A DNA stretch of 64,000 nt from a virus (lineage: Duplodnaviria; Heunggongvirae; Uroviricota; Caudoviricetes), in the IMG/VR virus record IMGVR_UViG_3300037418_002559, positions 15,999 to 79,998 of that record; one strand, written 5' to 3'. Positions 7,996 through 32,459 of the stretch are shown here, piece by piece (position 1 is the stretch's first letter; each line of letters starts with the position of its first letter). The position numbers were made by a program, and so were the translations under genes. The notes under the pieces are model-generated. The model made no database searches. It saw nothing but the letters and a program-made list of their open reading frames with translations, and had not been told where the DNA came from.

Positions 7996-8222
7996 CCAAG
8001 GTATGGGACTGCGTGGCGGTTAGCTGTCCGTCTTGCGACGCGGAGCCGGGGCAGCGGTGTCAACCACGCAAGCAGCGCAGCATGCGGAAGGAAGTGGATT
8101 ACCCGCACGTGGCGCGGCTCAGAAAGCACCGACGGACTGGCGCTGAGGCCCCGTTGATGGAAAACGCCAAGCTGTTCTTGCTAGCAAGATTCGTTAAAAG
8201 GAGTACGGGTGACAGAGGATGA
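7992..8222 (+). CDS. zinc-finger small protein
   Basis: CPSCDAEPGQRC. Confidence 0.4.
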   Translation: MTKVWDCVAVSCPSCDAEPGQRCQPRKQRSMRKEVDYPHVARLRKHRRTGAEAPLMENAKLFLLARFVKRSTGDRG

Positions 8223-9126
8223 GACGACCGCGCATATTCGGGCAGCGTTGGCTGGCGGTCAAGACTCTTACACGGCGCTTCACAAAGAAGTAACGAAGAT
8301 AGTGAAGCCCGTCAGCTATAAGTTCTTCCATGGCTCCGCTGAGGGCGAGGACTTCGAATGTGAAGCGGCCACGCACGTGCTTATGCGGCTAGACAAGTTC
8401 AACGGGGATTCTAGATTTTCCACTTGGGTCACGCGTGTGGCTCTTAATGAAGCACACGAAAGATTTCGTGGCAAGGCCAAGCATCATCGTGCCTTGTTGT
8501 CATACGACGCGGCGGAGGAGGAATCGGGGAAATCGCTGATAGCGACCTTCGCGGATCCAAGTGATGCGTACGCACAGATAGAAGTGAAGCAACTACTGGC
8601 CGTCGTGCTCGGCAGTCTCAGCGCGGAGAGCCAGTATCTGTTGACGGCGAAATACATGCAAGGCTACAGAAGCCAATACATGGCCGACGAATTGGGCATT
8701 ACGCTGGCCGCTTTGAAGGCACGCGTACACAGAGCACTACTGGAGGCAAGAACGATTATGGAAGGTCTTAATAATGGCACCAGTGCCCCACTGCACGCGA
8801 GCGCGCCAGCCGAGCTTGTGCCGGTCAACCCACGCAGCGGCAATCGACTAATTACGTGCGCCTGCGGCTGCAATCTGACTTGCGAGGCCACGGGACCGCG
8901 CCAGAAATACATCCCCGGTCATGCGCCGACGCCAGCGCCGGTGAAGACAGCGCGCGGCGACAAGATGAAGGCGTTCCCACACCTTGCGCCGCGCGCACAA
9001 GAAACTGTGCAGCTCAGCGTGCCGGTCAAAGCGCTGGACCACCTGCTCTCCATGCTGCCTGCCAAGACCAAGGCCAAGGCCGTGGAGTCCGCGCTGGCGG
9101 AGATGTACGCGCAGGCGGGAGAATAA
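8209..9126 (+). CDS. ECF-type RNA polymerase sigma factor with ~110-aa Cys-containing C-terminal extension
   Basis: GTG start after AAAGGAG. Region 2 FSTWVTRVALNEAHERFR resembles the FSTWLYRIARN consensus. Region 4 HTH LLTAKYMQGYRSQYMADELGITLAALKARVHRAL. C-terminal CACGCNLTC. Confidence 0.7.
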   Translation: MTEDETTAHIRAALAGGQDSYTALHKEVTKIVKPVSYKFFHGSAEGEDFECEAATHVLMRLDKFNGDSRFSTWVTRVALNEAHERFRGKAKHHRALLSYDAAEEESGKSLIATFADPSDAYAQIEVKQLLAVVLGSLSAESQYLLTAKYMQGYRSQYMADELGITLAALKARVHRALLEARTIMEGLNNGTSAPLHASAPAELVPVNPRSGNRLITCACGCNLTCEATGPRQKYIPGHAPTPAPVKTARGDKMKAFPHLAPRAQETVQLSVPVKALDHLLSMLPAKTKAKAVESALAEMYAQAGE

Positions 9127-15903: not shown

Positions 15904-16147
15904 GAATTGGCTTTGGTTTGCAGGCATAGCGGTTTTGGCTGCGCTACTGTTGGCGGCCTTTTGCGGCGTACTCAACACGACATCCAAGGCCGAGTACGTA
16001 CGCAAGAACAGGTGCGTGCTGACAAGTGACAGCCCGGATTCCAAGCTCTTTCTGCACGGCAGGGTACATGAAGAGCCAGGCTGGAAGACCTACGCGTGCC
16101 CCGACAACGTCTTCGTGGTCATCGAAAACGACGAGGAGCAGCCATGA
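15887..16147 (+). CDS. small membrane protein
   Basis: TM WLWFAGIAVLAALLLAAFCGV. Confidence 0.4.
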   Translation: MGAALKNWLWFAGIAVLAALLLAAFCGVLNTTSKAEYVRKNRCVLTSDSPDSKLFLHGRVHEEPGWKTYACPDNVFVVIENDEEQP

Positions 16148-16229: not shown

Positions 16230-18632
16230 ATGACAAACTACAGAAAAGCAGTAACGACAACCGGACGGTTGTCGAGTGGAACATCTAATTTACAGAAGAC
16301 GCCGTCGGCTTCATTCAGCGTCATCAAGCACGCAGTAGCCAGACAGTTTGAGTTGATGAAGGCGGACCGGTTGTTCCGCGTCGATCTAAGCGCTACATCT
16401 TCTGAGGTGCTTCTGGTGAAGTACGCCACGAACGGCGTAGAGACTCTGTCGTCAAAACAGCGCGTAGCCGCTACCGGAGACATTCTCTGGGAGGCCTACC
16501 TCGCGGCGTTCCCCGAGGGCACCAATCCCATCTACCGCGAGCGCACTGACCACGATTGCTCCTGCTGCCGTCATTTCATCAGAACGATGGGCGGCGTGGT
16601 CGCAATCATCGACGGCGAGTTGACCACGATTTGGGATGGAGAGCGCACCGGCACCTTCTACGACACAGTGCGCGAGAGAATGGCCGAACTGGTGCGTAGT
16701 GCCGTCATTGATAACATTTTCCTGCACACCGAGAGTTCCGTCGGCGTGGAGAAGACCTTTCAGCAGTTAGTGGCCGGTACTAAGCTTTCTGAAACTGTAA
16801 CGCAGTTTGAGAAAGGTGGCGTTCTTACTTGGGAGCACTTCCACCTGCACCTGCCAAACGCCGCCGTGCAGCGCAAAGACACCATCGGTTCGGCCTTAGC
16901 AGAAACAAGGGCTGCGCACGACGTGCTCAAGCGCGGACTGGAGGAGCTCACGCTCGACAGCGTCGACACCGTTCTGGAGCTCATCGCGCAGAACTCGCTG
17001 TACCGTGGCGAGGAGCACAAGTTCGTGCTGACTGAGTTCCGCAAGCTGAAGGTGGCGTACGGTGTGGAGAACGCGGAAAGGCCGTCAGGCGTGGATGTCG
17101 GCGCTTCGGTTCTGAAAGCGGCTGACAAGATGTACGGCATGCTGGGCAGCCGCGACGTGGAGCTAGACCGAGCACGCGACCTGTTCGTCTGGGATCGCTC
17201 CGTCGCCCTGCCGCCCGCCGTCGTGCGCATCCGCAACTCCGCCATCGGTACGCTGCTGATCGACTTGTCCGCCGACGTGGATCTGACAGAGGCGGTGCGC
17301 AAGTTCGAGACGAGCGTCATGGCTCCGGCGAACTACAAGCGGCCCACGGCGCTAGTGACCAAGGCGATGATCGAGAAGGCGCGCGCCAAGGTGGAAGGGC
17401 TTGGCTACACGTCCGCGCTGGAGCGGCGCTACGCGCACATCGACGACATCACGATCAACAACGTGTTGTTCGCTGACCGTACCGCGACCAAGCTGCACAA
17501 GGACGCCTTTGACGCACTGTCGGCACAGGTAGCCGAGAATCCCAGAAGCTACGATCGGGTGACAGAGGTGCCAATCGAAAAGTTCTTGGCTGAGGTCATG
17601 CCGAAGGCACGCTCGTTGGAGCTTCTGGTGGAGAATTGCCATGTCAGTAACCTCGTCAGCCTGATCGCGCCGGTCGATCCGGGCGCGAAGGGCATGTTCA
17701 AGTGGCCCAACAACTTCAGCTGGTCCTACAACGGCGAAGTCACGGACTCTATCAAGGAGCGGGTCAAGCGTGCCGGGGGCAGCGTGGTCGGCGACCTGTG
17801 CTGCAGGCTGGCTTGGGACTACACCGACGATCTGGACTTCCACATGCAGGAGCCGGGTGCGCCCAGACTGCTGGGCGGCTGGCTTTCCGCGCAAGGCAAC
17901 CACATCTACTACGGCAACGTGCGCCAGTTGTCCGTCAACGGCGGCATGCTGGATCTCGACGCCAATGGTTGCGATGGCATGAAGCCCGAACCGGCGGAGA
18001 ACATCTTCTACGCCGACAAGTGCACGATGGCCGAAGGCGTGTATGCTCTGTCCGTGCACAACTACAGACGTCGTGACGGCGGCAACGGTTTCGAGGTAGA
18101 GGTCGAGGTCGGCGGTGCGACGCACAGCTTCGTCTACGACAAACCGCTGCGAACTACCGAGACGGTGCACGTGGCGAACATACACTACTCGCGGGACGCG
18201 GGCTTCCGCGTGGAGGCTCTTATTCCGTCCACGCAGACCAGCAAGGCGGTGTGGGGCTTGCACACGCAGACATTCCAAAAGGTGAACGTGGTCATGCTGT
18301 CGCCGAACTATTGGGGCGGTGCGCACGTCGAGCGCGACGCTACCAACTCTGACATCGCGCGCAGTCTTGGCGACTTCGGCGTCGGCAACAAGCACTACTT
18401 CTTCATGCTGGAAGGCTGCCGCAACGAGGGACGGGCGCGCGGGTTCTTCAACGAGTTCCTGTCTGCCGAGCTGGAACCGCACCGCAAGACCATGGAGATG
18501 GTTGGCGCCAAGATGCGCACGGAGGAGGCGGAGCGGCAGCTGTCCGGCTTAGGCTTCAGCTCCACGCAGCGCGCGTCGGTGCTGTGCCGGGTCAAGGGCA
18601 GCGTGGACCGCGTCGTGAAGGTGGTGTTCTGA
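16230..18632 (+). CDS. large hypothetical protein (800 aa), no recognised domain
   Basis: Long ORF with its own promoter-like element. Contains HDCSCCRHF. No family recognised by eye. Confidence 0.7.
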   Translation: MTNYRKAVTTTGRLSSGTSNLQKTPSASFSVIKHAVARQFELMKADRLFRVDLSATSSEVLLVKYATNGVETLSSKQRVAATGDILWEAYLAAFPEGTNPIYRERTDHDCSCCRHFIRTMGGVVAIIDGELTTIWDGERTGTFYDTVRERMAELVRSAVIDNIFLHTESSVGVEKTFQQLVAGTKLSETVTQFEKGGVLTWEHFHLHLPNAAVQRKDTIGSALAETRAAHDVLKRGLEELTLDSVDTVLELIAQNSLYRGEEHKFVLTEFRKLKVAYGVENAERPSGVDVGASVLKAADKMYGMLGSRDVELDRARDLFVWDRSVALPPAVVRIRNSAIGTLLIDLSADVDLTEAVRKFETSVMAPANYKRPTALVTKAMIEKARAKVEGLGYTSALERRYAHIDDITINNVLFADRTATKLHKDAFDALSAQVAENPRSYDRVTEVPIEKFLAEVMPKARSLELLVENCHVSNLVSLIAPVDPGAKGMFKWPNNFSWSYNGEVTDSIKERVKRAGGSVVGDLCCRLAWDYTDDLDFHMQEPGAPRLLGGWLSAQGNHIYYGNVRQLSVNGGMLDLDANGCDGMKPEPAENIFYADKCTMAEGVYALSVHNYRRRDGGNGFEVEVEVGGATHSFVYDKPLRTTETVHVANIHYSRDAGFRVEALIPSTQTSKAVWGLHTQTFQKVNVVMLSPNYWGGAHVERDATNSDIARSLGDFGVGNKHYFFMLEGCRNEGRARGFFNEFLSAELEPHRKTMEMVGAKMRTEEAERQLSGLGFSSTQRASVLCRVKGSVDRVVKVVF

Positions 18633-19449: not shown

Positions 19450-19839
19450 ATGTTCGAGAAAGCATCGCGACTGAAACTACGCTTCCCGACCGCCGTCGGA
19501 AGCCTGACTGTGGAGGACCTTTGGGATCTTCCCTTGACCAGCAACCGAACCGTGAGCCTGGACGACATCGCGCGAGCCCTCCACCAAGAGTTGAAAAACT
19601 CTGAGGAGACTAGCTTCGTGGTGAAGACCAGCAACCTCAACGAGAGACTGCAGCTAGAGTTCGACGTTGTGAAGCACATTATCGATGTCAAGCTGGCCGA
19701 GGAGGAAGCAGCGCGCACCAGAGCGGCCAACCGCGAGAAGAAGCAGCGCTTGCAGGCGCTCATCGCGGAGAAGCAGGACGAGTCGCTCAAGGCATCTTCT
19801 GTTGAGGAGCTGCAGAGTATGGTCGAGGCGCTGGACTAG
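19450..19839 (+). CDS. hypothetical protein
   Basis: AAAGGAGAAACAACCATG, nearly the same context as at 18941. Confidence 0.45.
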   Translation: MFEKASRLKLRFPTAVGSLTVEDLWDLPLTSNRTVSLDDIARALHQELKNSEETSFVVKTSNLNERLQLEFDVVKHIIDVKLAEEEAARTRAANREKKQRLQALIAEKQDESLKASSVEELQSMVEALD

Positions 19840-19917
19840 CAGCGCCGCCGTCGCAATTGCGTTGCGTATTGTCAGAGTGGCCACAATAAGCGTGACCACT
19901 CTGACATTCTTAGTAAA

Positions 19918-20199
19918 ATGAGGTATGACATGAGCTTACAATCAGTACGCAAATGTGACGAATGCGCCGCAATACACGGCGTGGTCAACAACTGGTGGTG
20001 CGTGATAGCGTCGCCCAAACAGCCATTGTTCGTGACCTTCGAAGAGGCCGAGCAAAAGGCGCGGGCGGGTGACTTATACCGCGATGCGTTCAGGCTGGAC
20101 TACTGCAGTCACGCCTGCGTCGGCACGGCGTTTCATCGTTGGTTGGACACCGGTAGTGTGGTACGGCAAGAAAACCAGACTAGCGAGGAATCTGATTAA
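19918..20199 (+). CDS. hypothetical protein
   Basis: ORF track entry. Confidence 0.4.
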   Translation: MRYDMSLQSVRKCDECAAIHGVVNNWWCVIASPKQPLFVTFEEAEQKARAGDLYRDAFRLDYCSHACVGTAFHRWLDTGSVVRQENQTSEESD

Positions 20200-20201
20200 T
20201 C

Positions 20202-20681
20202 ATGCCACAATTGTTCTTAGACTGCGATGGTGTCGTAGCCGATTTTGATGGTTATTTTTTGTCTGTATTTGGTGTACCTCCAACGGAGGTTGAGATCACG
20301 CATGGTACGCAGTATCTGTATGCACTGTTGCAGGGGCATAAAGATTTTTACTTTAATCTGCCGCTCTTACCAGATGCAATGCAACTATACAGCGCGGTAG
20401 CGCATCTAAAACCAATCATCCTTACCGGGCATCCGAACACCAGTACACCAGCTTGGGCCATTAACCAGAAATTGCGCTGGACGGCGCACCACTTTCCAGG
20501 CGTACAGACCATCGTGTGCCCTTCTAAAGAAAAGTGCAAACACATGAAGCGCTTCGGTGATGTACTGGTGGACGATCGTTTGAAGTACATGCATTTCTGG
20601 ACTGAGGCTGGTGGAATTTTTGTGTGGCATACTTCTGCCGAAGAGTCCATTTCAAGATTGAAAGAGCTGGATATCTTATGA
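20202..20681 (+). CDS. HAD-family 5'(3')-deoxyribonucleotidase (NT5C-like)
   Basis: N-terminal FLDCDGVVADFDG (DxDGV HAD motif I), typical of NT5C. Confidence 0.75.
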   Translation: MPQLFLDCDGVVADFDGYFLSVFGVPPTEVEITHGTQYLYALLQGHKDFYFNLPLLPDAMQLYSAVAHLKPIILTGHPNTSTPAWAINQKLRWTAHHFPGVQTIVCPSKEKCKHMKRFGDVLVDDRLKYMHFWTEAGGIFVWHTSAEESISRLKELDIL

Positions 20682-21715
20682 CGGAATTACAGCTAGTAGC
20701 GCGCGAACTGGAAAAGGCTCTGTGCCCAGAGGACGTATTCGGCGTAGATATCAAACGGTCTTTCCGACAGCTAGTCAAAATCGTACACCCTGATTTCAAC
20801 AAGAATGCACTCTTCGCGCACGAGACGATGGAGCGGCTGAACGAGCTGAAGAGCATAGCCGATGCGCGGGTGGAGGCCGGCACGTGGGGAACGCGCTTGC
20901 CGTTTCCTTGGCATGAAGTAGTTGAGATTGGCGGCTACGCGGTGGCGCAGAGACCGCTAGTCGGCGACGTTGCTGACGTTTACGTAGGGATTGAATACGT
21001 CGTCAAAGTAGCCAGAAATTCAGACGACAACGATTTGATGCGAGCCGAACGCGCGGCGCTCTCGCTCCTGGCGAGCAAAGTCAACACGAAAGTAGCGGCT
21101 GCATTTCCCACGTTGCGAGGACACTTCCAGCAGAGTAATCGTGACACAAACGTACTGCGCAAAGTACCAGATGGGTTCCTGCCTGCGGAGGAAGTCCATC
21201 GTAGAATGCCGTCTGTAGACGGACGTGCTTTGGTTTGGATGTTCAAACGGCTGCTGGTGGCGCTGGAATGGGCACATCACTGCGGGCTTGTGCACGGGGC
21301 GGTGCTGCCGTCGCACGTCATGCTCTACCCGGACAACGACGGCACCACGACCAATCCGCATCCCTGCAAGCATACAGTGCGCCTGTTAGATTGGTGCTAC
21401 AGCGTAAGGTACGCGGAGCGTACGCGGTTGTCATCCTGGGTGCCAGCCTGGACTGCGCACTATCCACCCGAGTTATTATTAAAGCAATCGGTTACACCCG
21501 CGTCGGATATTTTCATGGCAGCCAGTTTGATTGCGTATCTTGCGGGAGGTATCGACGGCACAGAAGCGCCGCTGCGAGCAGTAATCGAGCGCTGCGTGCT
21601 GGCTGATGTTACAAAGCGTTATCAAACCGTGGCCCATGTATTCACGGATTGGAATGCGGCTGCCCAGCGTATATACGGGCCACCGAAATGGGTAGACTTC
21701 AACCTGCCGGAGTAA
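20678..21715 (+). CDS. J-domain fused to a protein-kinase-like domain (degenerate catalytic loop)
   Basis: J-domain FRQLVKIVHPDFNKN (HPD). Kinase-like YVVKVAR, RAERAAL, HCGLVHGAVLPSHVML (Asp replaced), RLLDWCYS. Confidence 0.65.
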   Translation: MTELQLVARELEKALCPEDVFGVDIKRSFRQLVKIVHPDFNKNALFAHETMERLNELKSIADARVEAGTWGTRLPFPWHEVVEIGGYAVAQRPLVGDVADVYVGIEYVVKVARNSDDNDLMRAERAALSLLASKVNTKVAAAFPTLRGHFQQSNRDTNVLRKVPDGFLPAEEVHRRMPSVDGRALVWMFKRLLVALEWAHHCGLVHGAVLPSHVMLYPDNDGTTTNPHPCKHTVRLLDWCYSVRYAERTRLSSWVPAWTAHYPPELLLKQSVTPASDIFMAASLIAYLAGGIDGTEAPLRAVIERCVLADVTKRYQTVAHVFTDWNAAAQRIYGPPKWVDFNLPE

Positions 21716-21725
21716 AGGAGCAAGA

Positions 21726-22178
21726 ATGCAAAGTTATTATGTTGTGAAGCAGGACCCGCCGTTCAATTGGAACTCCATGTTCGGCAGCGGGATAAGTATC
21801 GGCATGTTGATTTGCGTGGCCGTGTTCGTGGCTATCGGAATCGTACTGTGGAGTTTGTGGCTGGAGCCACAGTGGCGCGTTTGGGCCGCACACCAGAAAG
21901 GACTGGCTGACTTAGCTATGGCACGCAACGATCAGCAGGTGCAAGTGGCCGAGGCGCAGGCCAGGTTGGATGCGGCTGAGCTGAACAAGAAGGCCGCCGT
22001 TGTGGAGGCGCAGGCGGTCGCGGAGCAGATTACTGCGATAGGCGCGCAGTTGAAGGAACACGACTTGTTCCTGCGCTGGCAATGGATCAAGATGATGGAA
22101 GACGGCAATTCCGGTGCCCAAGTGATCTACGTGCCAACTGAGGCCAACCTACCGATTTTGGAAGCGAAACGACTGTAG
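21726..22178 (+). CDS. membrane protein with HflC/SPFH-like C-terminal segment
   Basis: TM MLICVAVFVAIGIVLWSLWL; coiled coil; RWQWIKMMEDGNSGAQVIYVP. Confidence 0.45.
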   Translation: MQSYYVVKQDPPFNWNSMFGSGISIGMLICVAVFVAIGIVLWSLWLEPQWRVWAAHQKGLADLAMARNDQQVQVAEAQARLDAAELNKKAAVVEAQAVAEQITAIGAQLKEHDLFLRWQWIKMMEDGNSGAQVIYVPTEANLPILEAKRL

Positions 22179-22194
22179 TACAAGGAGAACAAGT

Positions 22195-22383
22195 ATGTGC
22201 GATGTAGCGTGCGACGCGGAATCGTCAGATTCTACAAACATAAGAAAGACTACCCTGAAGGAGCGCGCCACCAAACGGCGCGAGCGAATTACCAAGGAGC
22301 TCAGCGAATTGGACGCCTTCTTAACCTACCTGGAAGCACACCCAGAATTGGAAGAATTCGCGGCGTGCATTAGTAGGTACTGA
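22195..22383 (+). CDS. hypothetical small protein
   Basis: AGGAGAA SD. Confidence 0.35.
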   Translation: MCDVACDAESSDSTNIRKTTLKERATKRRERITKELSELDAFLTYLEAHPELEEFAACISRY

Positions 22384-22426
22384 GGTTTAGCGCAGTTAAA
22401 TAACCAAGAGATAAGGAGAACTAGCC

Positions 22427-23377
22427 ATGGGCGGAGGAAGTTGGGATACAGGGCGATACACAAGCGCCAAGACTACAAGGGCTGCAAAGGGAGTGGATGA
22501 CTTCCACTACTCAAAGACAGCAAGCAAGACTCACAGCAATCTCGACCCGAAGCGCATCAGTGCCAAGCCGTTCGCCAAATTGGAAAGCCGTGATTCGGAA
22601 GAACACCCGCAGAGTAATCCGGTGCTGGTGTGCTTCGACGTTACTGGTTCTAACTATACGCGGGCCGTCGACGCGCAGAAGCGCCTGCCGAACCTGATGG
22701 AGCTGCTCGGGCGCTACTTGCCAGATCCGCAGGTTGCCGTGGCTGCGAACGACGACTACAACTCGGTTGGCGACCAGTGCCTACAGATATCTGACTTCGA
22801 GAGCGACAATCGCGTGGACGAGCACATACGCTCCATACGGTTGACCAGCGAGGGCGGAGCCAACGATGGGGAATCCTACGACCTCATGCTGTACGCGGCG
22901 GCGCGGAAGACGACAACCGACTCCGTGGAGAAGCGCGGCAAGAAAGGCTACTTCTTTATGTACGCCGACGAGCCAATCTTCACCAAGGTAAGCGCTAACG
23001 AGGTAAAGTCCGTATTCGGCGACGTAGTACAACGGGACATCCCCATTGCGGAGATCATCGAGGAGGTGCGGCGCACTTGGCAATTGTTCGTCATATACCC
23101 TATTGGCGGCTACAAGCACGCGCGCAACCAGTACGTGGAGCTGTTCGGCGAGGAGTCGGTACTGGATTTGCAGGACGCCAATCTCATCTGCGAGCTGATA
23201 GCCTCCACTGTCGGTCTGTATGAGGGGAAGGCCACACCAGTATCTTTGGTCACCGACCTAGTATCCGTTGGTCTGGACCGAAACGAGGCGTCCACCATGG
23301 TGAGCCACGCTCTTGTAAAAACACAAAGCAGTAGCACGTTATCTACATCCGGTGGAGGCAAGGCCGCACGGTTGTAG
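22427..23377 (+). CDS. von Willebrand factor A domain protein
   Basis: MIDAS-like VLVCFDVTGSN; AAGGAGAA SD. Confidence 0.6.
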   Translation: MGGGSWDTGRYTSAKTTRAAKGVDDFHYSKTASKTHSNLDPKRISAKPFAKLESRDSEEHPQSNPVLVCFDVTGSNYTRAVDAQKRLPNLMELLGRYLPDPQVAVAANDDYNSVGDQCLQISDFESDNRVDEHIRSIRLTSEGGANDGESYDLMLYAAARKTTTDSVEKRGKKGYFFMYADEPIFTKVSANEVKSVFGDVVQRDIPIAEIIEEVRRTWQLFVIYPIGGYKHARNQYVELFGEESVLDLQDANLICELIASTVGLYEGKATPVSLVTDLVSVGLDRNEASTMVSHALVKTQSSSTLSTSGGGKAARL

Positions 23378-23597
23378 CATTGTGAGTGAGCGCCTCTGCC
23401 ACGGTAGTACCTGTGGATTCTCCCCACGGCGGCGCTTTCTTGCTTTGGATGGGCGTAGAACGGTCATGCGCCCATCGGAGTTCCTTATTGTGGGAACCAG
23501 TTGCAGCGTGAACCCGAGGCGAACGGGGCGCGTCATGCTGCGCAGGCTGCACGTAGGGAACTCCGATGGTTGCATGAACAAACGGGAAGAGGACAGA

Positions 23598-24764
23598 ATG
23601 AGTAGAGCAATCTTGGTGCAGGGCTTAGCCTATGGCGATGAGTGCAAGGGCGCAACAGTGGATTTTCTTTGCCGTCAGCTACCGGTAGACTTGGTGGTGC
23701 GGTTCAATGGCGGTAGTCAGGCAGCGCACAACGTGTGTACGACGGAGGGAGCACACCACACGTTCAGCCAATTCGGCTCTGGCACGCTTGCGGGAGAACA
23801 CGTGCGGACGCATCTTTCGCGCTTCATGCTGGTTGACCCATTGACGATGATGAACGAAGCGGCTGCTTTGCGTGAACAACTGGGAGTGCAGCCTTGGCGC
23901 GGTTTAACGGTGGATCCTCGATGCGTAATCATCACACCATTCCACAAGCAGGTGAATCGACTGCGCGAGATGGCACGCGGATTGGCGCGGCACGGCAGCT
24001 GCGGGATGGGTGTAGGCGTGGCACGCGAATGGCAGTTGAAATATGGTGACGCCGTGCTGTACGCGGAGGATGTGCTTGACACCCAGAAGGTGACGGAGAA
24101 GCTACGATTCTTGCTGAACCTTGCTTGCCAAGAGTTTGGTGTAACGCTGATGAGCTACAGTGAGATTAATCTGCGTGAGCTTGCCTACACCTACGCGAAG
24201 TGGCCGGTTGTGCTCGACACGATGCCCAAGTCCGATTTGGCGGTCTTCGAAGGTGCGCAGGGCGTCCTGTTGGATGAAACGCACGGCGAAGCGCCTTATC
24301 ACACATGGACGGATTGTACGTTCAACAATGCGGACACGCTTTGCGCAGAGGCCGGTATTACGGATCGCTTCAGAGTGGGTTGCGCGCGTGCCTACCTTAC
24401 GCGACACGGCGCTGGGCCATTGCCTGGCGCTTTAGCGCACGACCCTGCTTGGCACCCAGCGGAGCCGCACAATGTCACCAATGAGTTCCAAGGACCGTTT
24501 CGCGTAGCACCAATGAACTTCTTCTTGCTACGCAAGGCAATGAGCTACATCGGCAGCCTAGATTGCCTAGCAATCAGCCATCTGGATGTGTACGGCGGCG
24601 GCGTACTGGACACGCGTTTGATGCACGATCTGCTGGGCGTATTCGAGCAAGAGCTGGCTACGCCTATTGGAATCAAGGCTTGGGGGCCTACCGCACTCAA
24701 CCGTGAGTTCACGCCAGCGTGGACCACGGCTTGGGCAAGGATCTTAGAAGAGGCTGCGCAATGA
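23598..24764 (+). CDS. adenylosuccinate synthetase family protein, short divergent form (PurZ-like candidate)
   Basis: GDECKGA corresponds to PurA GDEGKGK. VVRFNGGSQAAHN, FEGAQGVLLD, RAYLTRHGAGP. 388 aa versus about 430 for bacterial PurA. Confidence 0.75.
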   Translation: MSRAILVQGLAYGDECKGATVDFLCRQLPVDLVVRFNGGSQAAHNVCTTEGAHHTFSQFGSGTLAGEHVRTHLSRFMLVDPLTMMNEAAALREQLGVQPWRGLTVDPRCVIITPFHKQVNRLREMARGLARHGSCGMGVGVAREWQLKYGDAVLYAEDVLDTQKVTEKLRFLLNLACQEFGVTLMSYSEINLRELAYTYAKWPVVLDTMPKSDLAVFEGAQGVLLDETHGEAPYHTWTDCTFNNADTLCAEAGITDRFRVGCARAYLTRHGAGPLPGALAHDPAWHPAEPHNVTNEFQGPFRVAPMNFFLLRKAMSYIGSLDCLAISHLDVYGGGVLDTRLMHDLLGVFEQELATPIGIKAWGPTALNREFTPAWTTAWARILEEAAQ

Positions 24765-25069
24765 CGCCATATGCTGTTCTACTTGTAAAGCCAACCGATT
24801 CTGACGAGGTTATTCGGAAAACCTACCATCGTATCGCGGAGCGTAACCACCCCGACGCCAATGGCGGCGTTGCAGGCGCGCTGTGGCACGCCGCTACAGC
24901 GGCATACACGACTGTTAAGACAGAAGAGAAGCGCGAGGCATGGGCGCACAAACAAGCACTATTATCTGGCCTATGCACTGAGTGCGAAGGCTATGGCGTG
25001 CGCGGCACGCGGATGTTCAAAGGTAAGATTCGCGTTTGCGCGGAGTGCAAGGGGGAAGGACGAATATGA
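24761..25069 (+). CDS. J-domain protein with DnaJ-type CxxCxG zinc finger
   Basis: VIRKTYHRIAERNHPD; CTECEGYG...CAECKGEG. Confidence 0.6.
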   Translation: MTPYAVLLVKPTDSDEVIRKTYHRIAERNHPDANGGVAGALWHAATAAYTTVKTEEKREAWAHKQALLSGLCTECEGYGVRGTRMFKGKIRVCAECKGEGRI

Positions 25070-25359
25070 ATCATGATCTGTACAAAGATGGTGACACAGG
25101 CATACCAGAACAGATCACTGACCGCAATGGCCAAGTGGAGCTGGCTTTGTGCAAGCGGTGCGGCAAAGCCGAAATAGAATTGTCTGGGCCCTGCGTAACG
25201 GAAAGAGAAAAGGCGTTGCGTGAAGCTGCCGCCATTGCGTACTCGGCGGTGTACAGCGGCGACTATCCAAGCAGTGACACAGACGCGCGCGACGATGTGG
25301 CGCGGTGGATCGAACGTCGTATTCTTATGTTGGCTGATGAAGAGAGTGCGAAAGCGTAG
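25066..25359 (+). CDS. hypothetical protein
   Basis: ATGA overlap; CKRCGK. Confidence 0.4.
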   Translation: MNHDLYKDGDTGIPEQITDRNGQVELALCKRCGKAEIELSGPCVTEREKALREAAAIAYSAVYSGDYPSSDTDARDDVARWIERRILMLADEESAKA

Positions 25360-25390
25360 CGCGTTATAATAGAAGCAGGAGGTAAGACCG

Positions 25391-25846
25391 ATGGCAAAGA
25401 GCAAGAAGCAGAAAACCGCAACTCCCCCTGTCGTAAGCCACGATCGCGCGCCTTGCTGGGAAGTGTTTTTCCGTGATCAGAAAAGTCCGTTGTTGCGTAG
25501 TCAACTGATTACGGCTTTGATGTCAGGCCACCAATTGGAAGTGGAACGCTTGCCCACGGCTACGCTGCTGGACGCTGTATTGCTTTCTATGAGTGCGCGC
25601 AGCTATTCCGAAGCTGAGATTGTCGATGATTACAATGCTTTACTTCGGCGGACTGACGCGGCCTGGAAAGATCCTATGTGGACAAGACGTACGTTTGACC
25701 AGACGCACATGAACGCTGCAGACTTCATCATTACGTGTGGCTCTTCTGAGTTTACTTGCGTGGAGGACGAGTATATTCCGGATCTCGTGCATTGGTTGTT
25801 GGAGCATGATCCGCCAGAGTATTTCAGCGAGGAACTCGCAGCGTGA
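25391..25846 (+). CDS. hypothetical protein
   Basis: GGAGG SD. Confidence 0.45.
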   Translation: MAKSKKQKTATPPVVSHDRAPCWEVFFRDQKSPLLRSQLITALMSGHQLEVERLPTATLLDAVLLSMSARSYSEAEIVDDYNALLRRTDAAWKDPMWTRRTFDQTHMNAADFIITCGSSEFTCVEDEYIPDLVHWLLEHDPPEYFSEELAA

Positions 25847-27175: not shown

Positions 27176-27652
27176 ATGAGTAAGCCAGAAAAATTTACGT
27201 TGATAACTAATTTGCAGTTCGTGACCGTGCGCGGCGTGCGCACGTTCTGCCACGCGCTGCTTGTGACCGAGAATGACAAGGGTCTTTTCGGCCCAAGTTA
27301 CACCGTACGCGGATTCGGCACGGAGGGCGCATGGCCGGTCTTTGATATTCGCATAGCAAAGGAAGATTTGCCGTTCGCGCTTGCCGAAGCGCACAGTGCC
27401 GATAAGTTGTGGCTAAAAGAAGATGGAACCGCGCAGCCGTTAGTCAGCGGCGCTATTTTGTCATTCAAGTCCGGCCTGGATCTGCAGCTAGTGACTGCCA
27501 CGGACGAGAAGCCAATCGATGTTACACACTACACCGAAATCATCGAAGTCTGGCAGGCAGTTTGGCGCAAGACCGCCGAATACTGGCACATGCCTAACAT
27601 GCCGCGCCTCGTGTACGGTCCTCCATCACCCTCTGGGTGCACTTACCGCTGA
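27176..27652 (+). CDS. hypothetical protein
   Basis: ATGA overlap. Confidence 0.45.
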   Translation: MSKPEKFTLITNLQFVTVRGVRTFCHALLVTENDKGLFGPSYTVRGFGTEGAWPVFDIRIAKEDLPFALAEAHSADKLWLKEDGTAQPLVSGAILSFKSGLDLQLVTATDEKPIDVTHYTEIIEVWQAVWRKTAEYWHMPNMPRLVYGPPSPSGCTYR

Positions 27653-27666
27653 AAGGCTACGAAACA

Positions 27667-28527
27667 ATGAAACCACTGGTAATTTATCACTCCCCTTGCC
27701 TTGATGGCTTTACCGCAGCCTGGGCCATGTGGCTCAAGTACCCCGATGCCGAGTTCATCCCCGGCGTGTACGGGCAAGCACCACCTGATTGTACAGATCG
27801 CGACGTCTACTTGTTGGACTTCAGCTACAAACGCGACGTGCTCAAAGCCATAGCGCGCGTTGCGCGGAAGGTCATCGTACTGGACCACCATACTTCGGCT
27901 GAGAAAGAACTATCGAACTTGTGGGACGCAGACGGTACATTCGTAAACACCACGGCCATATTCGACATGCACAAATCCGGTGCGCGGTTGGCGTGGGAGT
28001 GGTTCCATCCGAGCACGGAGGTTCCGCTGCTCGTTCGTCTGGTGGAGGACCGCGACCTGTGGCGGTTCGCGGTGCCGAACAGCAAAGCGTTGAACGCGGT
28101 GTTCTTCAGCTATGACTACGCCTTTGATACGTGGAGCGAGCTTGCAGACGCCGTGGCGGATCATCGCTACTCTGCCTTAGTGCGCGCCGGTGAATCGATC
28201 GAGCGCAAGCACATAAAAGACGTGAAGGAGCTTGTCGGCAAGCTGCAGCACCTACGCGACTTCTTCACCGTCGCAGGAAGCGGCCTGCCTAGCACGGACA
28301 TACCATGTGCCAACCTGCCCTACACGCTGGCCAGCGACGCCGCCAATCTTATGGCGAAAGACGCGCCGTTCGCGGCGACGTACTTCCAAGACGGTGATGG
28401 TGTGTTCACCTTCAGCCTGCGCAGTGTAGAGGGTGGCGTGGATGTCAGCCTGATTGCCGCTCTCTACGGCGGCGGCGGCCACAAGCACGCCGCTGGATTC
28501 CGCGTGGCCAGTCTGGAGGAGCTGTGA
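27667..28527 (+). CDS. DHH-DHHA1 phosphoesterase (NrnA/RecJ-like)
   Basis: N-terminal IYHSPCLDGFTAA (DHH region); C-terminal DHHA1 GGGGHKHAAGF. Confidence 0.7.
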   Translation: MKPLVIYHSPCLDGFTAAWAMWLKYPDAEFIPGVYGQAPPDCTDRDVYLLDFSYKRDVLKAIARVARKVIVLDHHTSAEKELSNLWDADGTFVNTTAIFDMHKSGARLAWEWFHPSTEVPLLVRLVEDRDLWRFAVPNSKALNAVFFSYDYAFDTWSELADAVADHRYSALVRAGESIERKHIKDVKELVGKLQHLRDFFTVAGSGLPSTDIPCANLPYTLASDAANLMAKDAPFAATYFQDGDGVFTFSLRSVEGGVDVSLIAALYGGGGHKHAAGFRVASLEEL

Positions 28528-28977: not shown

Positions 28978-29314
28978 CAGGCTGATCGTGGAATTGGCAA
29001 TGCGCGCATTGGAGGAAGAGACCACTGGACAGGAGGATTGGTGGTACTGCTCTTTTGCCAATGACGCAGGATTCGAAGGCGCCATTCTAGTACGCGCCAA
29101 GGGCGTTATCACTGCTAGACTGCGTGTCGACAAGCTAGGCTTCAGTCCGCGCGGTTCTATGCTGGCGGTGCCGGTAAACGGGCGCCAGCTGCCAGATGCG
29201 ACGTTTCTCGAGCGCCTGCTGTCTAAGCCAGAACTGGATGTAGCGTTCGCCAACCTTGGCGGCGTCGCCACCGTTCACATGCAAAGCAGTAAGGAGCCAC
29301 AGCATGTCAACTAA
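28964..29314 (+). CDS. hypothetical protein
   Basis: AAGGAG SD. Confidence 0.4.
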   Translation: MLEANRLIVELAMRALEEETTGQEDWWYCSFANDAGFEGAILVRAKGVITARLRVDKLGFSPRGSMLAVPVNGRQLPDATFLERLLSKPELDVAFANLGGVATVHMQSSKEPQHVN

Positions 29315-30284
29315 ATTGTGGAAACCAATGCTGGCGGCGAAGCCGAAGCCAGAGGAGCTCGACGAGGTATTGGCTGGATTGACGTACCCAGCGCTTTACT
29401 CGCCGAAGCTGGATGGAATTCGCGCCACGGTGCAGAACGGCAGACTGTACAGCCGAGCGCTGAAGCTAATTCCCAACAAGGAAATGCAGGCGCTGTGGGG
29501 GCGCGAAGAGTTGGACGGACTAGACGGCGAGATCATCGTGGGGCCGCCCACGGCGGAGAATTGCTTCAACCGTTCCACCAGCGTCGTGATGAGCCGCGAC
29601 AAGGTGTCCGATGACGCCATATTCCATGTTTTCGACATAATGCTGGATGGCGTGTCGTTCGACATGCGCCTGGCGCGCGCTGATGACTGCGTCATGAACG
29701 CGGATATTTCAGCCGTCAAGTTAGTGAAGCACGAGCTAATTAAGACGCACACGGCAGCGCTGAAGTATGAAGAGCGGATGACGAAGTTTGGCTATGAGGG
29801 TATCATGCGCCGCGACCCGAACGGCGCATACAAGCAAGGCCGTAGTACGTTGCGCGAGGGTGGGCTTATCGCTGTGAAACGTTTCGTGGATGCCGAGGCT
29901 GTCATCCTGGACACGTATGAGCAGGAGGAAAATACTAACGAGAAAACCACTAACGAGCTCGGTAAGTCAAAGCGCTCGTCGCACAAGGCCGGCAAGGTGG
30001 GCAAGGACACGTTGGGCGGGTTCACTGTACTTATACTGGAAGAGTATCTTTCGCAGGCAGGTATGTGGTCACTGAAGTCAATCACTGATAACGCTGTAAC
30101 GAAGAAGTTGGCGTTCAACATCGGCACTGGCGTAGGCTTGACGGACGCAGTGCGCACGGAGCTGTGGACGCGGCGAAAGACGTTGCCCGGCAAGATTGTC
30201 AAGTTCCGCTACCAAAAGATTGGAACCATGGAGAAGCCGCGTCTTCCGGTATTCTTAGGCTTCCGCGACGGGAGGGACTTGTGA
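29304..30284 (+). CDS. ATP-dependent DNA ligase
   Basis: Motif I KLDGIRA (KxDGxR) near the N-terminus; AAGGAG SD; about 326 aa, T7-ligase-like size. Confidence 0.8.
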   Translation: MSTKLWKPMLAAKPKPEELDEVLAGLTYPALYSPKLDGIRATVQNGRLYSRALKLIPNKEMQALWGREELDGLDGEIIVGPPTAENCFNRSTSVVMSRDKVSDDAIFHVFDIMLDGVSFDMRLARADDCVMNADISAVKLVKHELIKTHTAALKYEERMTKFGYEGIMRRDPNGAYKQGRSTLREGGLIAVKRFVDAEAVILDTYEQEENTNEKTTNELGKSKRSSHKAGKVGKDTLGGFTVLILEEYLSQAGMWSLKSITDNAVTKKLAFNIGTGVGLTDAVRTELWTRRKTLPGKIVKFRYQKIGTMEKPRLPVFLGFRDGRDL

Positions 30285-31556: not shown

Positions 31557-32459
31557 ATGGATCCTGTATTTTTGTTGGCGCTTGTGGTATTCGCACTGCT
31601 GTGTACGTGCCTACTGCTTGCTGGTTCTGTATTTTCTGTGAAGACGCAGACGGCGTACGTTGTCGAGCGCTTCGGTAAGTTCAACCGCGTCGCGCGCGCT
31701 GGCTTGAACTTCAAGCTGCCCTTTGTAGAGACGAAACATCTCATCAATTTGGCAACATTTCAACTGGATGGCAAGATTGAAACCAAAACGAAAGATAATG
31801 TATTCGTGACTCTGCCGGTTTCGTGCCAGTGGCACGTTGGCGAGAGCGACGCCGCCGTGCAAGCGTACTACTACAAGCTGACCGCCATAAAGCAGATCAG
31901 CTCGTATCTGTACAACATTCTGCTCGGGCACGTACCGGACATGGACCTGGACGATTTGTTCATAAGCCAACAGGCGGTTTCGGCCAAGGTTTCAGCCGAG
32001 CTAGAGGCGCAGATGACTTGCTTTGGTGTGGAGATTATCAAGGTGATGATAACTGACATCTGCCCCGATCAGGGCGTGGTCAAGGCCATGAATAGCATCA
32101 ACGAGCAGACTCGTCTGGCCGTGGCCAATAAGGCGCAGGGCGACGCCGAGTACGTACTTAAGGTGCGACAGGCAGAGGCTGATGCAGAAGTAAAGAGGCT
32201 TGCTGGAGTCGGTGTGGCTAAGGAGCGAGAGGCCATTGCTGAGGGCTGGGAAGAATCCATTAAGAAGATAAAGGCAGCAACTTCGCTGGACGACAGTGCC
32301 GCCACCTTCTTGCTGCTGTTTACCAACTGGACCGACATGCTGCGCGAAGTCGGCTCAACCAAGAATTCCACAATGATATTCATGCCACCGGGGCCGGAAG
32401 GTCTGCAGAACTTCCAGGCGACCATGACGAACGCTCTGCTTGCGGCGGGTGTAAAGTAA
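31557..32459 (+). CDS. SPFH/band-7 (stomatin/HflC-like) membrane protein
   Basis: N-terminal TM; YVVERFGKFNRVARAGLNFKLPFVE matches the SPFH core consensus. Confidence 0.75.
   Translation: MDPVFLLALVVFALLCTCLLLAGSVFSVKTQTAYVVERFGKFNRVARAGLNFKLPFVETKHLINLATFQLDGKIETKTKDNVFVTLPVSCQWHVGESDAAVQAYYYKLTAIKQISSYLYNILLGHVPDMDLDDLFISQQAVSAKVSAELEAQMTCFGVEIIKVMITDICPDQGVVKAMNSINEQTRLAVANKAQGDAEYVLKVRQAEADAEVKRLAGVGVAKEREAIAEGWEESIKKIKAATSLDDSAATFLLLFTNWTDMLREVGSTKNSTMIFMPPGPEGLQNFQATMTNALLAAGVK

Follow-up and report, generated by a model that had tools for sequence, protein, structure and literature searches.

Can a phage protein that carries a J-domain and a protein kinase fold in a single chain still transfer phosphate, and what might it do if that activity has been given up? 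The question is raised by a gene in a 64,000-nucleotide stretch of a tailed-phage genome (IMG/VR record IMGVR_UViG_3300037418_002559, positions 15,999 to 79,998), which we call the window and whose numbering is used throughout. Our analysis leads us to conclude that the amino terminus of this protein is a bona fide J-domain; that its kinase-like remainder lacks the catalytic aspartate throughout a large family of phage and bacterial proteins; and that its gene is linked, in phages and bacteria alike, to genes for a vWA-domain protein and for a divergent relative of adenylosuccinate synthetase (PurA). This gene context, which had no part in an initial annotation made from the letters of the window, is the main new result.

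A J-domain joined to a kinase fold without its catalytic residues

Conservation was assessed in three overlapping samples: 96 database homologues, 145 representatives of clusters at 50% identity and 134 proteins translated from individual loci. In an AlphaFold2 model of the 345-residue protein (pLDDT 96.3, pTM 0.89), the first helix spans residues 3-13, the second 25-36 and a long third helix 45-67, with the HPD tripeptide in the loop at 37-39. This is the helix II-HPD-helix III layout of a J-domain, and pLDDT exceeds 93 in all three of these elements. By itself the protein matches Pfam DnaJ (PF00226) at E=6.5e-4 and 20.2 bits, under the 27.8-bit cut-off, which is why evidence at the level of the family matters. 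PF00226 is matched by 51 of the 96 database homologues, the best at 5.5e-9, and Pkinase by 49 of the 96. A profile of residues 1-72, built from 30 diverse members and run against the PDB, retrieved 48 sequences, all of them J-domains, with best matches to DNAJA3 (4.4e-8), E. coli DnaJ (1.2e-6) and auxilin (5e-5). The HPD motif itself is kept in 95/96 database homologues and, among locus sequences, in 82/83 of those from bacteria and 40/43 of the J-bearing viral ones; among the 145 cluster representatives its His and Asp are present in 141 and its Pro in 122.

The rest of the chain, residues ~80-345, has the bilobal fold of a eukaryotic-type protein kinase (ePK). It matches PHROG 3043, 'kinase', at E=7e-30, and the HMMER alignment to PDK1 sets HHCGLVHGAVLPSHVML opposite HGKGIIHRDLKPENILL and VRLLDW opposite IQITDFG. 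Two residues expected of a Hanks-type kinase are almost universal: the beta3 (VAIK) lysine, K110 (96/96, 143/145 and 133/134 in the three samples), and the alphaC glutamate, E124 (96/96, 144/145 and 134/134). Five residues before E124, in a DNDL motif, D119 is kept in 96/96 and 134/145. By motif position, standard ePK roles can also be assigned to E265 in an APE-like YPPE motif (kept in 95/96), to D277 at an alphaF-like position (96/96) and to R314 at an alphaH-I-like position (95/96). Other residues are invariant and peculiar to the family, with no standard ePK role: G96-D97 (Gly-loop), N118-D119-L120 (where alphaC starts) and H232.

The HRDxKxxN catalytic loop of Hanks-type kinases is absent. 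Its equivalent, aligned to IIHRDLKPEN of PDK1, reads HGAVLPSH, so that the HRD aspartate is replaced by Ala208, the catalytic-loop lysine by Leu210 and the metal-binding asparagine by His213. No sequence in any sample (0/96, 0/145, 0/134) has aspartate at the HRD position; position 208 is Ala, rarely Gly, Ser or Cys, and in all three samples never Asp or Glu. The loop signature H-G-A-[IV]-L-P-x-H is strongly conserved across the family, with H206, G207 and P211, as well as H232, essentially invariant in the three samples; position 213 is Asn in the homologue from mycobacteriophage Catera and in 15 of the 145 representatives, and otherwise a conserved His. The loop is a fixed family signature, not the decay of one gene.

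In place of DFG, the family has a 'DW' motif, here D238-W239. Its aspartate is kept in 90/96 and 129/145 of the first two samples, and in 75/83 bacterial and 40/43 viral locus sequences. Where it is swapped (~6-10%), the replacement is almost always Gly (6/96, 13/145 and 8/83 bacterial). The operons of these eight bacterial loci are otherwise intact, which argues that Mg-ATP phosphotransfer is dispensable to the system while fold and pocket are not. The six database members with Gly at this site are P0006, P0009, P0012, P0013, P0082 and P0103; in the first three it co-occurs with Gly at the HRD position.

A kinase fold without at least one residue essential to catalysis is by definition a pseudokinase, and we use that term here. 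The residue pattern fits a pocket kept for binding a nucleotide or other ligand, with phosphotransfer abandoned. Because the loop begins with 'HG', we considered the 'HGD' kinases of the RIO/Bud32/Kdo (InaA) type; neither their HGDLxxxN loop nor a family-level hidden Markov model match was found. A viral fold search in BFVD returned generic viral kinases only, and no J-kinase architecture.

The domain identities and the conservation of their motifs are thus demonstrated here, and they bear out what the initial annotation had read from the sequence: an amino-terminal J-domain with HPD (its profile finds J-domains only), a kinase-like remainder recognised by VVKVAR, RAERAAL and RLLDW, and HGAVLPSH for HRDLKPEN, with the catalytic Asp missing. 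It had allowed that there might prove to be no kinase fold; what emerged was a Hanks-type one. Its description of the loop as 'degenerate' holds in so far as the catalytic residues are replaced, but not if decay is meant, the signature being conserved family-wide. It also knew of no such fusion in phages, and here the databases say otherwise.

A profile search of 1.84 billion cluster representatives found 1,498 proteins at E<=1e-30, or ~1,500 clusters at 50% identity; the top 150 are all ~324-415 residues long, and nearly all match the whole J-plus-kinase profile. A 345-residue protein 100% identical to ours (P0001) lies on a 100-kb JGI metagenome contig. By tblastn we found 203 phage records, all from Mycobacterium/Mycolicibacterium phages, with Bixzunavirus (cluster C) members such as Catera (gp249) matching best. 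In 102 of the 203, at least 80% of the query is covered, and the best reach ~31% identity over residues 1-345. These phage proteins are labelled 'serine/threonine kinase' or 'kinase', labels that imply an active kinase and reflect neither the J-domain nor the absent Asp. In bacteria, a scan of one genome per species gave 534 loci; bacterial proteins of the family go by the names 'molecular chaperone DnaJ', 'lipopolysaccharide kinase InaA family protein' or 'hypothetical protein'. The J-pseudokinase is no one-off phage oddity but belongs to a large family, uncharacterised and mis-annotated; hundreds of entries that databases list as phage 'serine/threonine kinases' or as bacterial 'DnaJ' or 'InaA kinase' form a single J-pseudokinase family with no catalytic Asp. 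In cluster C phages the replication module is also reported to include, as a separate gene, a 'DnaJ-like chaperonin' (McGee gp206; PMC9583779), so that these phages may encode two J-domain proteins.

A gene triad shared by phages and bacteria

In the window the J-pseudokinase gene is followed by two small non-conserved open reading frames (ORFs), the vWA gene and the PurA-like gene. Catera gp249, gp250 and gp252 are homologues of the three main products; gp250 is 37% identical to the window vWA protein (E=5e-53) and gp252 38% identical to the PurA-like enzyme (E=5e-60). For bacteria, neighbourhoods were counted in the best 80 of the 534 loci, all from Actinomycetota and including Actinomadura, Spirillospora, Actinoallomurus, Thermomonospora, Micromonospora and Dactylosporangium. 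In all 80, the kinase-like gene is followed by vWA and PurA-like homologues in the same order. In 77 it is preceded by a gene for a Nudix plus NrtR-type winged-helix protein, and at least two of the other three loci begin too near a contig end to show one. The full four-gene order, NrtR-like, J-kinase, vWA and PurA-like, also occurs in Dactylosporangium, in an Anaerolineae (Chloroflexota) metagenome-assembled genome and in a 3-Mb actinobacterial contig, with 4-bp overlaps between genes. An overlap of this length between the NrtR-type gene and the kinase-like gene was seen in the two loci checked for it (L003, L133). The place of the NrtR-type gene ahead of the triad, noted in bacterial loci L005-L084 (77 of these 80), L133 and L134, suggests regulation by ADP-ribose or a related nucleotide.

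The viral set comprised 50 loci (48 IMG/VR contigs, Catera and one metagenome contig), in which partners were sought within 7 kb. A vWA homologue was found in 47 and a PurA-like homologue in 46, with most of the misses at contig or locus ends. The linkage of J-kinase, vWA and PurA-like genes thus holds across phages and bacteria. No PP2C-type phosphatase partner was seen in the annotated loci, and no defence-island context was found for the triad. A known anti-phage defence system was also considered and rejected: PADLOC gave generic kinase-domain matches only (MkoA, PD-T4-6), and none for the vWA or PurA-like partners.

The vWA partner, of 316 residues, has the Rossmann-like vWA fold with a metal ion-dependent adhesion site (MIDAS), whose residues D71-x-T73-G74-S75 and D181-E182 do not vary among 122 unique sequences from bacteria and viruses. 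Of the three proteins this one is the best conserved, at 57-79% identity where the kinase-like protein shows 45-61%. Its amino terminus, MG[SG]G.W (22427-22444), is conserved as well, with Met-Gly in 119 and Trp6 in 106 of the 122 sequences; such conservation is unusual at an amino terminus and hints at a functional terminal Gly, possibly modified or nucleophilic.

The third protein matches Pfam Adenylsucc_synt. Its ORF opens with a GTG at 23352 and homology begins at M83, so that the ATG at 23598 is the probable start. Against the NCBIfam equivalog cut-offs it scores 121.6 bits where PurA requires 402, and 38.6 where PurZ requires 300. Across 122 family members it keeps the equivalents of E. 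coli PurA D13, K16, H41, Q224 and the guanine-specifying D333, together with the GDxGKG P-loop and the FEGAQG motif. Relative to E. coli PurA it has the invariant replacements N38Q, T129C, V273H and K331H; R131 is also changed, and [WF]QG.FR.G stands in place of the aspartate loop GATTGRRRR. The residues that bind the 5'-phosphate of inosine monophosphate (IMP) and form the Asp loop are thus altered, and with these scores the protein is an equivalog of neither PurA nor PurZ. Since catalytic residues are kept and substrate-pocket residues changed, it is predicted to be an active GTP-dependent enzyme whose substrates are probably not IMP plus aspartate. The PurZ (Z-genome) pathway was ruled out by the PurZ score. 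PHROG 1211, and Catera gp252 in RefSeq, bear the name '2-aminooxy adenylosuccinate synthetase', which looks like a garbled form of PurZ; these proteins fall well short of the PurZ model.

One clade departs from this plan. In 7-8 viral loci, on contigs of ~11-512 kb that are mostly jumbo-sized (L123; also L122, L124-L127 and L129), the kinase-like protein has no J-domain at all, and the gene order is vWA, PurA-like, kinase-like. Since the kinase-like domain is kept there, it is the kinase fold that appears to be the triad's core partner, with the J-domain as an added coupling device. On the 512-kb IMG/VR contig of L123 (1937-8981), the block is flanked by an NrtR-type Nudix regulator gene together with NadV/NAMPT and, at its opposite end, by a cytidylyltransferase-like (NMNAT-like) gene, and 5-6 related loci repeat parts of this arrangement for salvage of nicotinamide adenine dinucleotide (NAD+). 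No NadV or NMNAT gene lies within the 64-kb window or in the neighbourhood of the remaining 40 viral loci, those that bear a J-domain. The idea that the triad generally adjoins NAD+ salvage genes was accordingly rejected, and the NAD+ connection is a lead, backed by the bacterial NrtR genes and one phage clade, rather than a general rule.

Around the triad, the window is that of a large tailed phage, with genes for a primase, a family-A-like polymerase, a helicase, a baseplate wedge subunit, an ATP-dependent DNA ligase and a sigma-like factor. No sequenced phage is closely related to it; its sole nucleotide matches are short and to Caulobacter phiCbK-like phages. The one stretch of this kind (~17409-17857, 73% nucleotide similarity) lies inside an 800-residue ORF (16230-18632) that matches PHROG 1735, of unknown function, at E=8e-243. 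The ATG of the J-pseudokinase gene overlaps the stop codon of the preceding gene by 4 bp (ATGA); a longer ORF opens with a GTG at 20624, and the homologues start at the ATG. The preceding NT5C-like gene was excluded as a member of the module, no homologue of it adjoining the triad in the 50 viral loci. Searches of other loci by tblastn gave no matches to the two small ORFs, and in the closest viral loci the vWA gene directly follows the kinase-like gene. A promoter and terminator scan of 19800-25500 gave no more sites than shuffled sequence.

Table 1. Features of the J-pseudokinase gene, its partners and other genes of the window
Feature	Position	Strand	Basis or detail
J-domain/kinase-fold gene	20678..21715	+	ORF and translation; 345 residues; coordinates include the stop codon; ATG 20678, stop 21713-21715
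J-domain, residues 1-70	20678..20887	+	AlphaFold2 secondary structure, N-terminal profile, Pfam DnaJ
HPD tripeptide H37 P38 D39, Hsp70 ATPase-stimulating motif	20786..20794	+	Within FRQLVKIVHPD
Hanks-type protein-kinase fold, residues ~80-345	20915..21712	+	
K110, beta3 (VAIK) Lys	21005..21007	+	In VVKVAR
E124, alphaC Glu	21047..21049	+	In RAERAAL
Catalytic-loop equivalent HGAVLPSH, residues 206-213	21293..21316	+	Alignment to PDK1
D238-W239, DFG equivalent	21389..21394	+	In RLLDW; motif alignment
vWA-domain protein, 316 residues	22427..23377	+	MIDAS motif
PurA-like (adenylosuccinate-synthetase family) enzyme	23598..24764	+	Pfam Adenylsucc_synt, E=6e-45
NT5C-like 5'-nucleotidase gene	20202..20681	+	Pfam NT5C, E=4.5e-6; directly upstream of J-pseudokinase gene
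Two small ORFs between J-pseudokinase and vWA genes	21726..22383	+	ORF list; 150-residue predicted membrane protein and 62-residue ORF
Sigma-70-like factor gene	8209-9126		Regions 2 and 4, near threshold
DHH/DHHA1 phosphoesterase gene	27637-28527		
ATP-dependent DNA ligase gene	29256-30284		
SPFH/Band-7 protein gene	31557-32459		

Possible modes of action

Recruitment of Hsp70 to a kinase-fold scaffold, as the initial annotation proposed, is plausible from the motifs, and the triad allows a fuller proposal. Tentatively, we favour a reading in which a class-C (type III) J-domain co-chaperone, with a nucleotide-binding pseudokinase as the part that binds partners, acts as adaptor and regulatory subunit of a three-protein module with the MIDAS-vWA protein and the PurA-like GTP-dependent ligase. 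With the Lys-Glu pair and usually the DFG Asp kept, its kinase-fold domain could hold ATP or another nucleotide; without catalytic base, catalytic-loop Lys and Asn, it would transfer no phosphate. The domain would serve as a docking site for one operon partner or for both, and this docking may depend on nucleotide. The HPD J-domain would trigger ATP hydrolysis in DnaK/Hsp70 (host DnaK in the case of phage copies), and DnaK would clamp and remodel the docked partner, thereby assembling, activating or recycling it, so that the output of the PurA-like enzyme is controlled. In bacteria the operon would stand under the NrtR-type Nudix regulator, which in characterised relatives responds to ADP-ribose/NAD. 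In this scheme we infer nucleotide binding, loss of phosphotransfer, stimulation of DnaK, physical contact with the two partner proteins and which way regulation runs.

Several observations weigh against this proposal. Taken alone, the window protein falls under the Pfam gathering thresholds for both of its domains, DnaJ and Pkinase. The invariant D97 or D119 may reach the gamma-phosphate site, in line with the proviso of the initial annotation that catalytic residues might come from other positions; the near-absolute conservation of K110 and E124, the ~90% retention of D238 and the conserved His213 and His232 would also be in keeping with an enzyme that is active in an unconventional manner. 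Physical contact with the partners is suggested by synteny, and the J-less clade shows that a fused J-domain is not indispensable to the module.

The second of these points leads to an alternative that we consider unlikely, namely that the protein is an unconventional active kinase or other ATP-dependent transferase. The roles of the missing Asp, Lys and Asn would fall to H213, H232, D97 or D119, and the J-domain would bring in the substrates; the target to be phosphorylated or AMPylated would be the vWA protein, the PurA-like enzyme or some client of DnaK. Retention of K110, E124 and D238 at ~90-100% is in keeping with this, as are a histidine at the metal-binding Asn site that is still Asn in Catera and 15 of the 145 representatives, and three extra invariant residues (D97, D119 and H232) atypical of ePKs. 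Further, the vWA-kinase-PP2C themes described by Kaur et al. 2020 (PMC7159879) have vWA proteins as substrates of the kinases, and databases call the phage homologues Ser/Thr kinases. However, no acidic residue stands at the HRD position in any of the 96, 145 or 134 sequences, the catalytic-loop Lys is lost as well, and ~6-10% of otherwise intact operons have dispensed with the DFG Asp; nor do the annotated loci offer a PP2C-type phosphatase partner. We know of no precedent for efficient phosphotransfer with HGA.

Equally doubtful, in our judgement, is an account that moves the emphasis to the PurA-like enzyme and makes the triad a metabolic counter-defence or stress module, rebuilding, for example, adenine-nucleotide or NAD+-related pools. 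The J-pseudokinase would then be an allosteric nucleotide sensor or stabiliser, and its J-domain would mainly help the enzyme to fold in a foreign host. Such a role is suggested by the J-less jumbo-phage clade, in which the triad sits between NrtR plus NadV (NAMPT) and an NMNAT-like gene, by the NrtR-type regulator at the head of the bacterial operons, and by the position of the window cassette among NT5C, DHH phosphoesterase, ligase, polymerase and helicase genes; phage NAD+ reconstitution pathways are moreover an established theme (PMC13464706). Against it, the NadV/NMNAT adjacency is limited to ~8 loci of that one clade, the residues of the IMP 5'-phosphate site and Asp loop are altered in the PurA-like enzyme, and neither a defence-island context nor a PADLOC match for the partners was found.

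Finally, it is very improbable that the protein is a host-takeover J-protein that titrates or redirects host DnaK (for instance in the heat-shock response) and uses the kinase fold as a decoy or targeting domain: the J-domain is canonical and Rki of phage RB43 shows that a phage J-protein can act in this way (PMC3486835), but full-length orthologues in the chromosomal operons of 534 bacterial species genomes argue against a hijacker, and the strict linkage to vWA and PurA-like genes would be left unexplained.

The co-chaperone reading also has a bolder extension, which we regard as a long shot. The triad would be an unrecognised Hsp70-coupled nucleotide-ligase system of multicellular-type bacteria and large phages, wired through NrtR to NAD+/ADP-ribose sensing, in which the PurA-like enzyme does not make adenylosuccinate. 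It may have kept the phosphoryl-transfer and amine-substitution chemistry of PurA while its 5'-phosphate pocket and aspartate loop were remodelled. One possibility is that it re-aminates a 6-oxopurine within a larger nucleotide, such as deamino-NAD or an ITP-derived species; another is that it joins a purine nucleotide to a protein amine, for which the Met-Gly amino terminus of the vWA protein may be a candidate. In either case the pseudokinase may present the substrate and DnaK may reset the complex.

Whichever of these accounts applies, the data define a compact module of three to four genes (NrtR, J-pseudokinase, MIDAS-vWA and divergent PurA-like) that is found across Actinomycetota, Chloroflexota and large phages, and the whole operon may prove to be a new system. 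Its ties to NrtR and to the NAD+ salvage genes of jumbo phages mean that it may reveal new nucleotide chemistry in phage-host metabolism. Since cluster C mycobacteriophages and M. smegmatis lend themselves to genetics, the function of the module can be tested directly.

Relation to known systems

A search of the full-text literature found no description of the family, of the triad operon or of a phage J-domain kinase; the coverage omits most subscription journals, so that this absence is no proof. NARP3 was considered as a related system and ruled out, being an unrelated PnuC/NadR system.

Among the closest known systems is the 'serine/threonine kinase' of cluster C mycobacteriophages, such as Catera gp249 (PHROG 3043), which shares the HPD, HGA and DW motifs at the identity given above and is likewise followed by vWA and PurA-like homologues. 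It differs in its Asn at 213, in a Gly-loop with D-E instead of G-D, and in its actinobacterial host.

A standalone vWA protein linked to a Hanks-type kinase-fold protein recalls the vWA-kinase-PP2C themes, of which the TerY-P triad is one. Those systems have active kinases and a PP2C phosphatase, whereas the triad described here has no catalytic Asp, no phosphatase and a PurA-like third partner. Kaur et al. 2020 describe vWA-kinase-PP2C neighbourhoods in GTPase-centric conflict systems, together with DnaJ/Hsp70 associations (PMC7159879), and Iyer et al. 2022 describe 'chaperone' systems with a Nudix regulator plus vWA; neither paper describes the triad or mentions a PurA-like partner. The linked enzyme itself shares the fold and the catalytic Asp/His of PurA and PurZ, and differs from them at T129 (Cys), V273 (His) and N38 (Gln) and in reading QG.FR.G for TTGRRRR.

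Among phage J-proteins, Rki of RB43 is a functional type III J-domain protein that acts via host DnaK, for which complementation by J-domain swap was used, and the same study notes J-like sequences in mycobacteriophages (PMC3486835). Unlike the present family, it has no kinase fold and no counterpart in bacterial operons, and it is an ORFan where this family has ~1,500 clusters. The ATP-binding pseudokinases STRADalpha, ULK4, STK40, VRK3 and JAK JH2 show no specific sequence relationship to the family, and none of them is fused to a J-domain.

A J-domain and a kinase in one chain are also known from two eukaryotic proteins. GAK (auxilin-2), like this family, combines a protein-kinase fold and an Hsp70-recruiting J-domain in one chain. 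In GAK an active kinase is amino-terminal and the J-domain carboxy-terminal, with PTEN-like and clathrin-binding regions between them; in the family described here the J-domain comes first, the catalytic residues of the kinase are missing, and homology does not extend past the domains themselves. The DNAJB1-PRKACA fusion of fibrolamellar carcinoma (J-PKAc) does share the order of the family, with an amino-terminal J-domain directly fused to a kinase core (PMC5768683), but it is an accidental somatic fusion to active PKA and not an evolved family. The J-pseudokinases are thus a natural and ancient fusion of J-domain and kinase fold, outside both eukaryotic GAK and the oncogenic DNAJB1-PRKACA.

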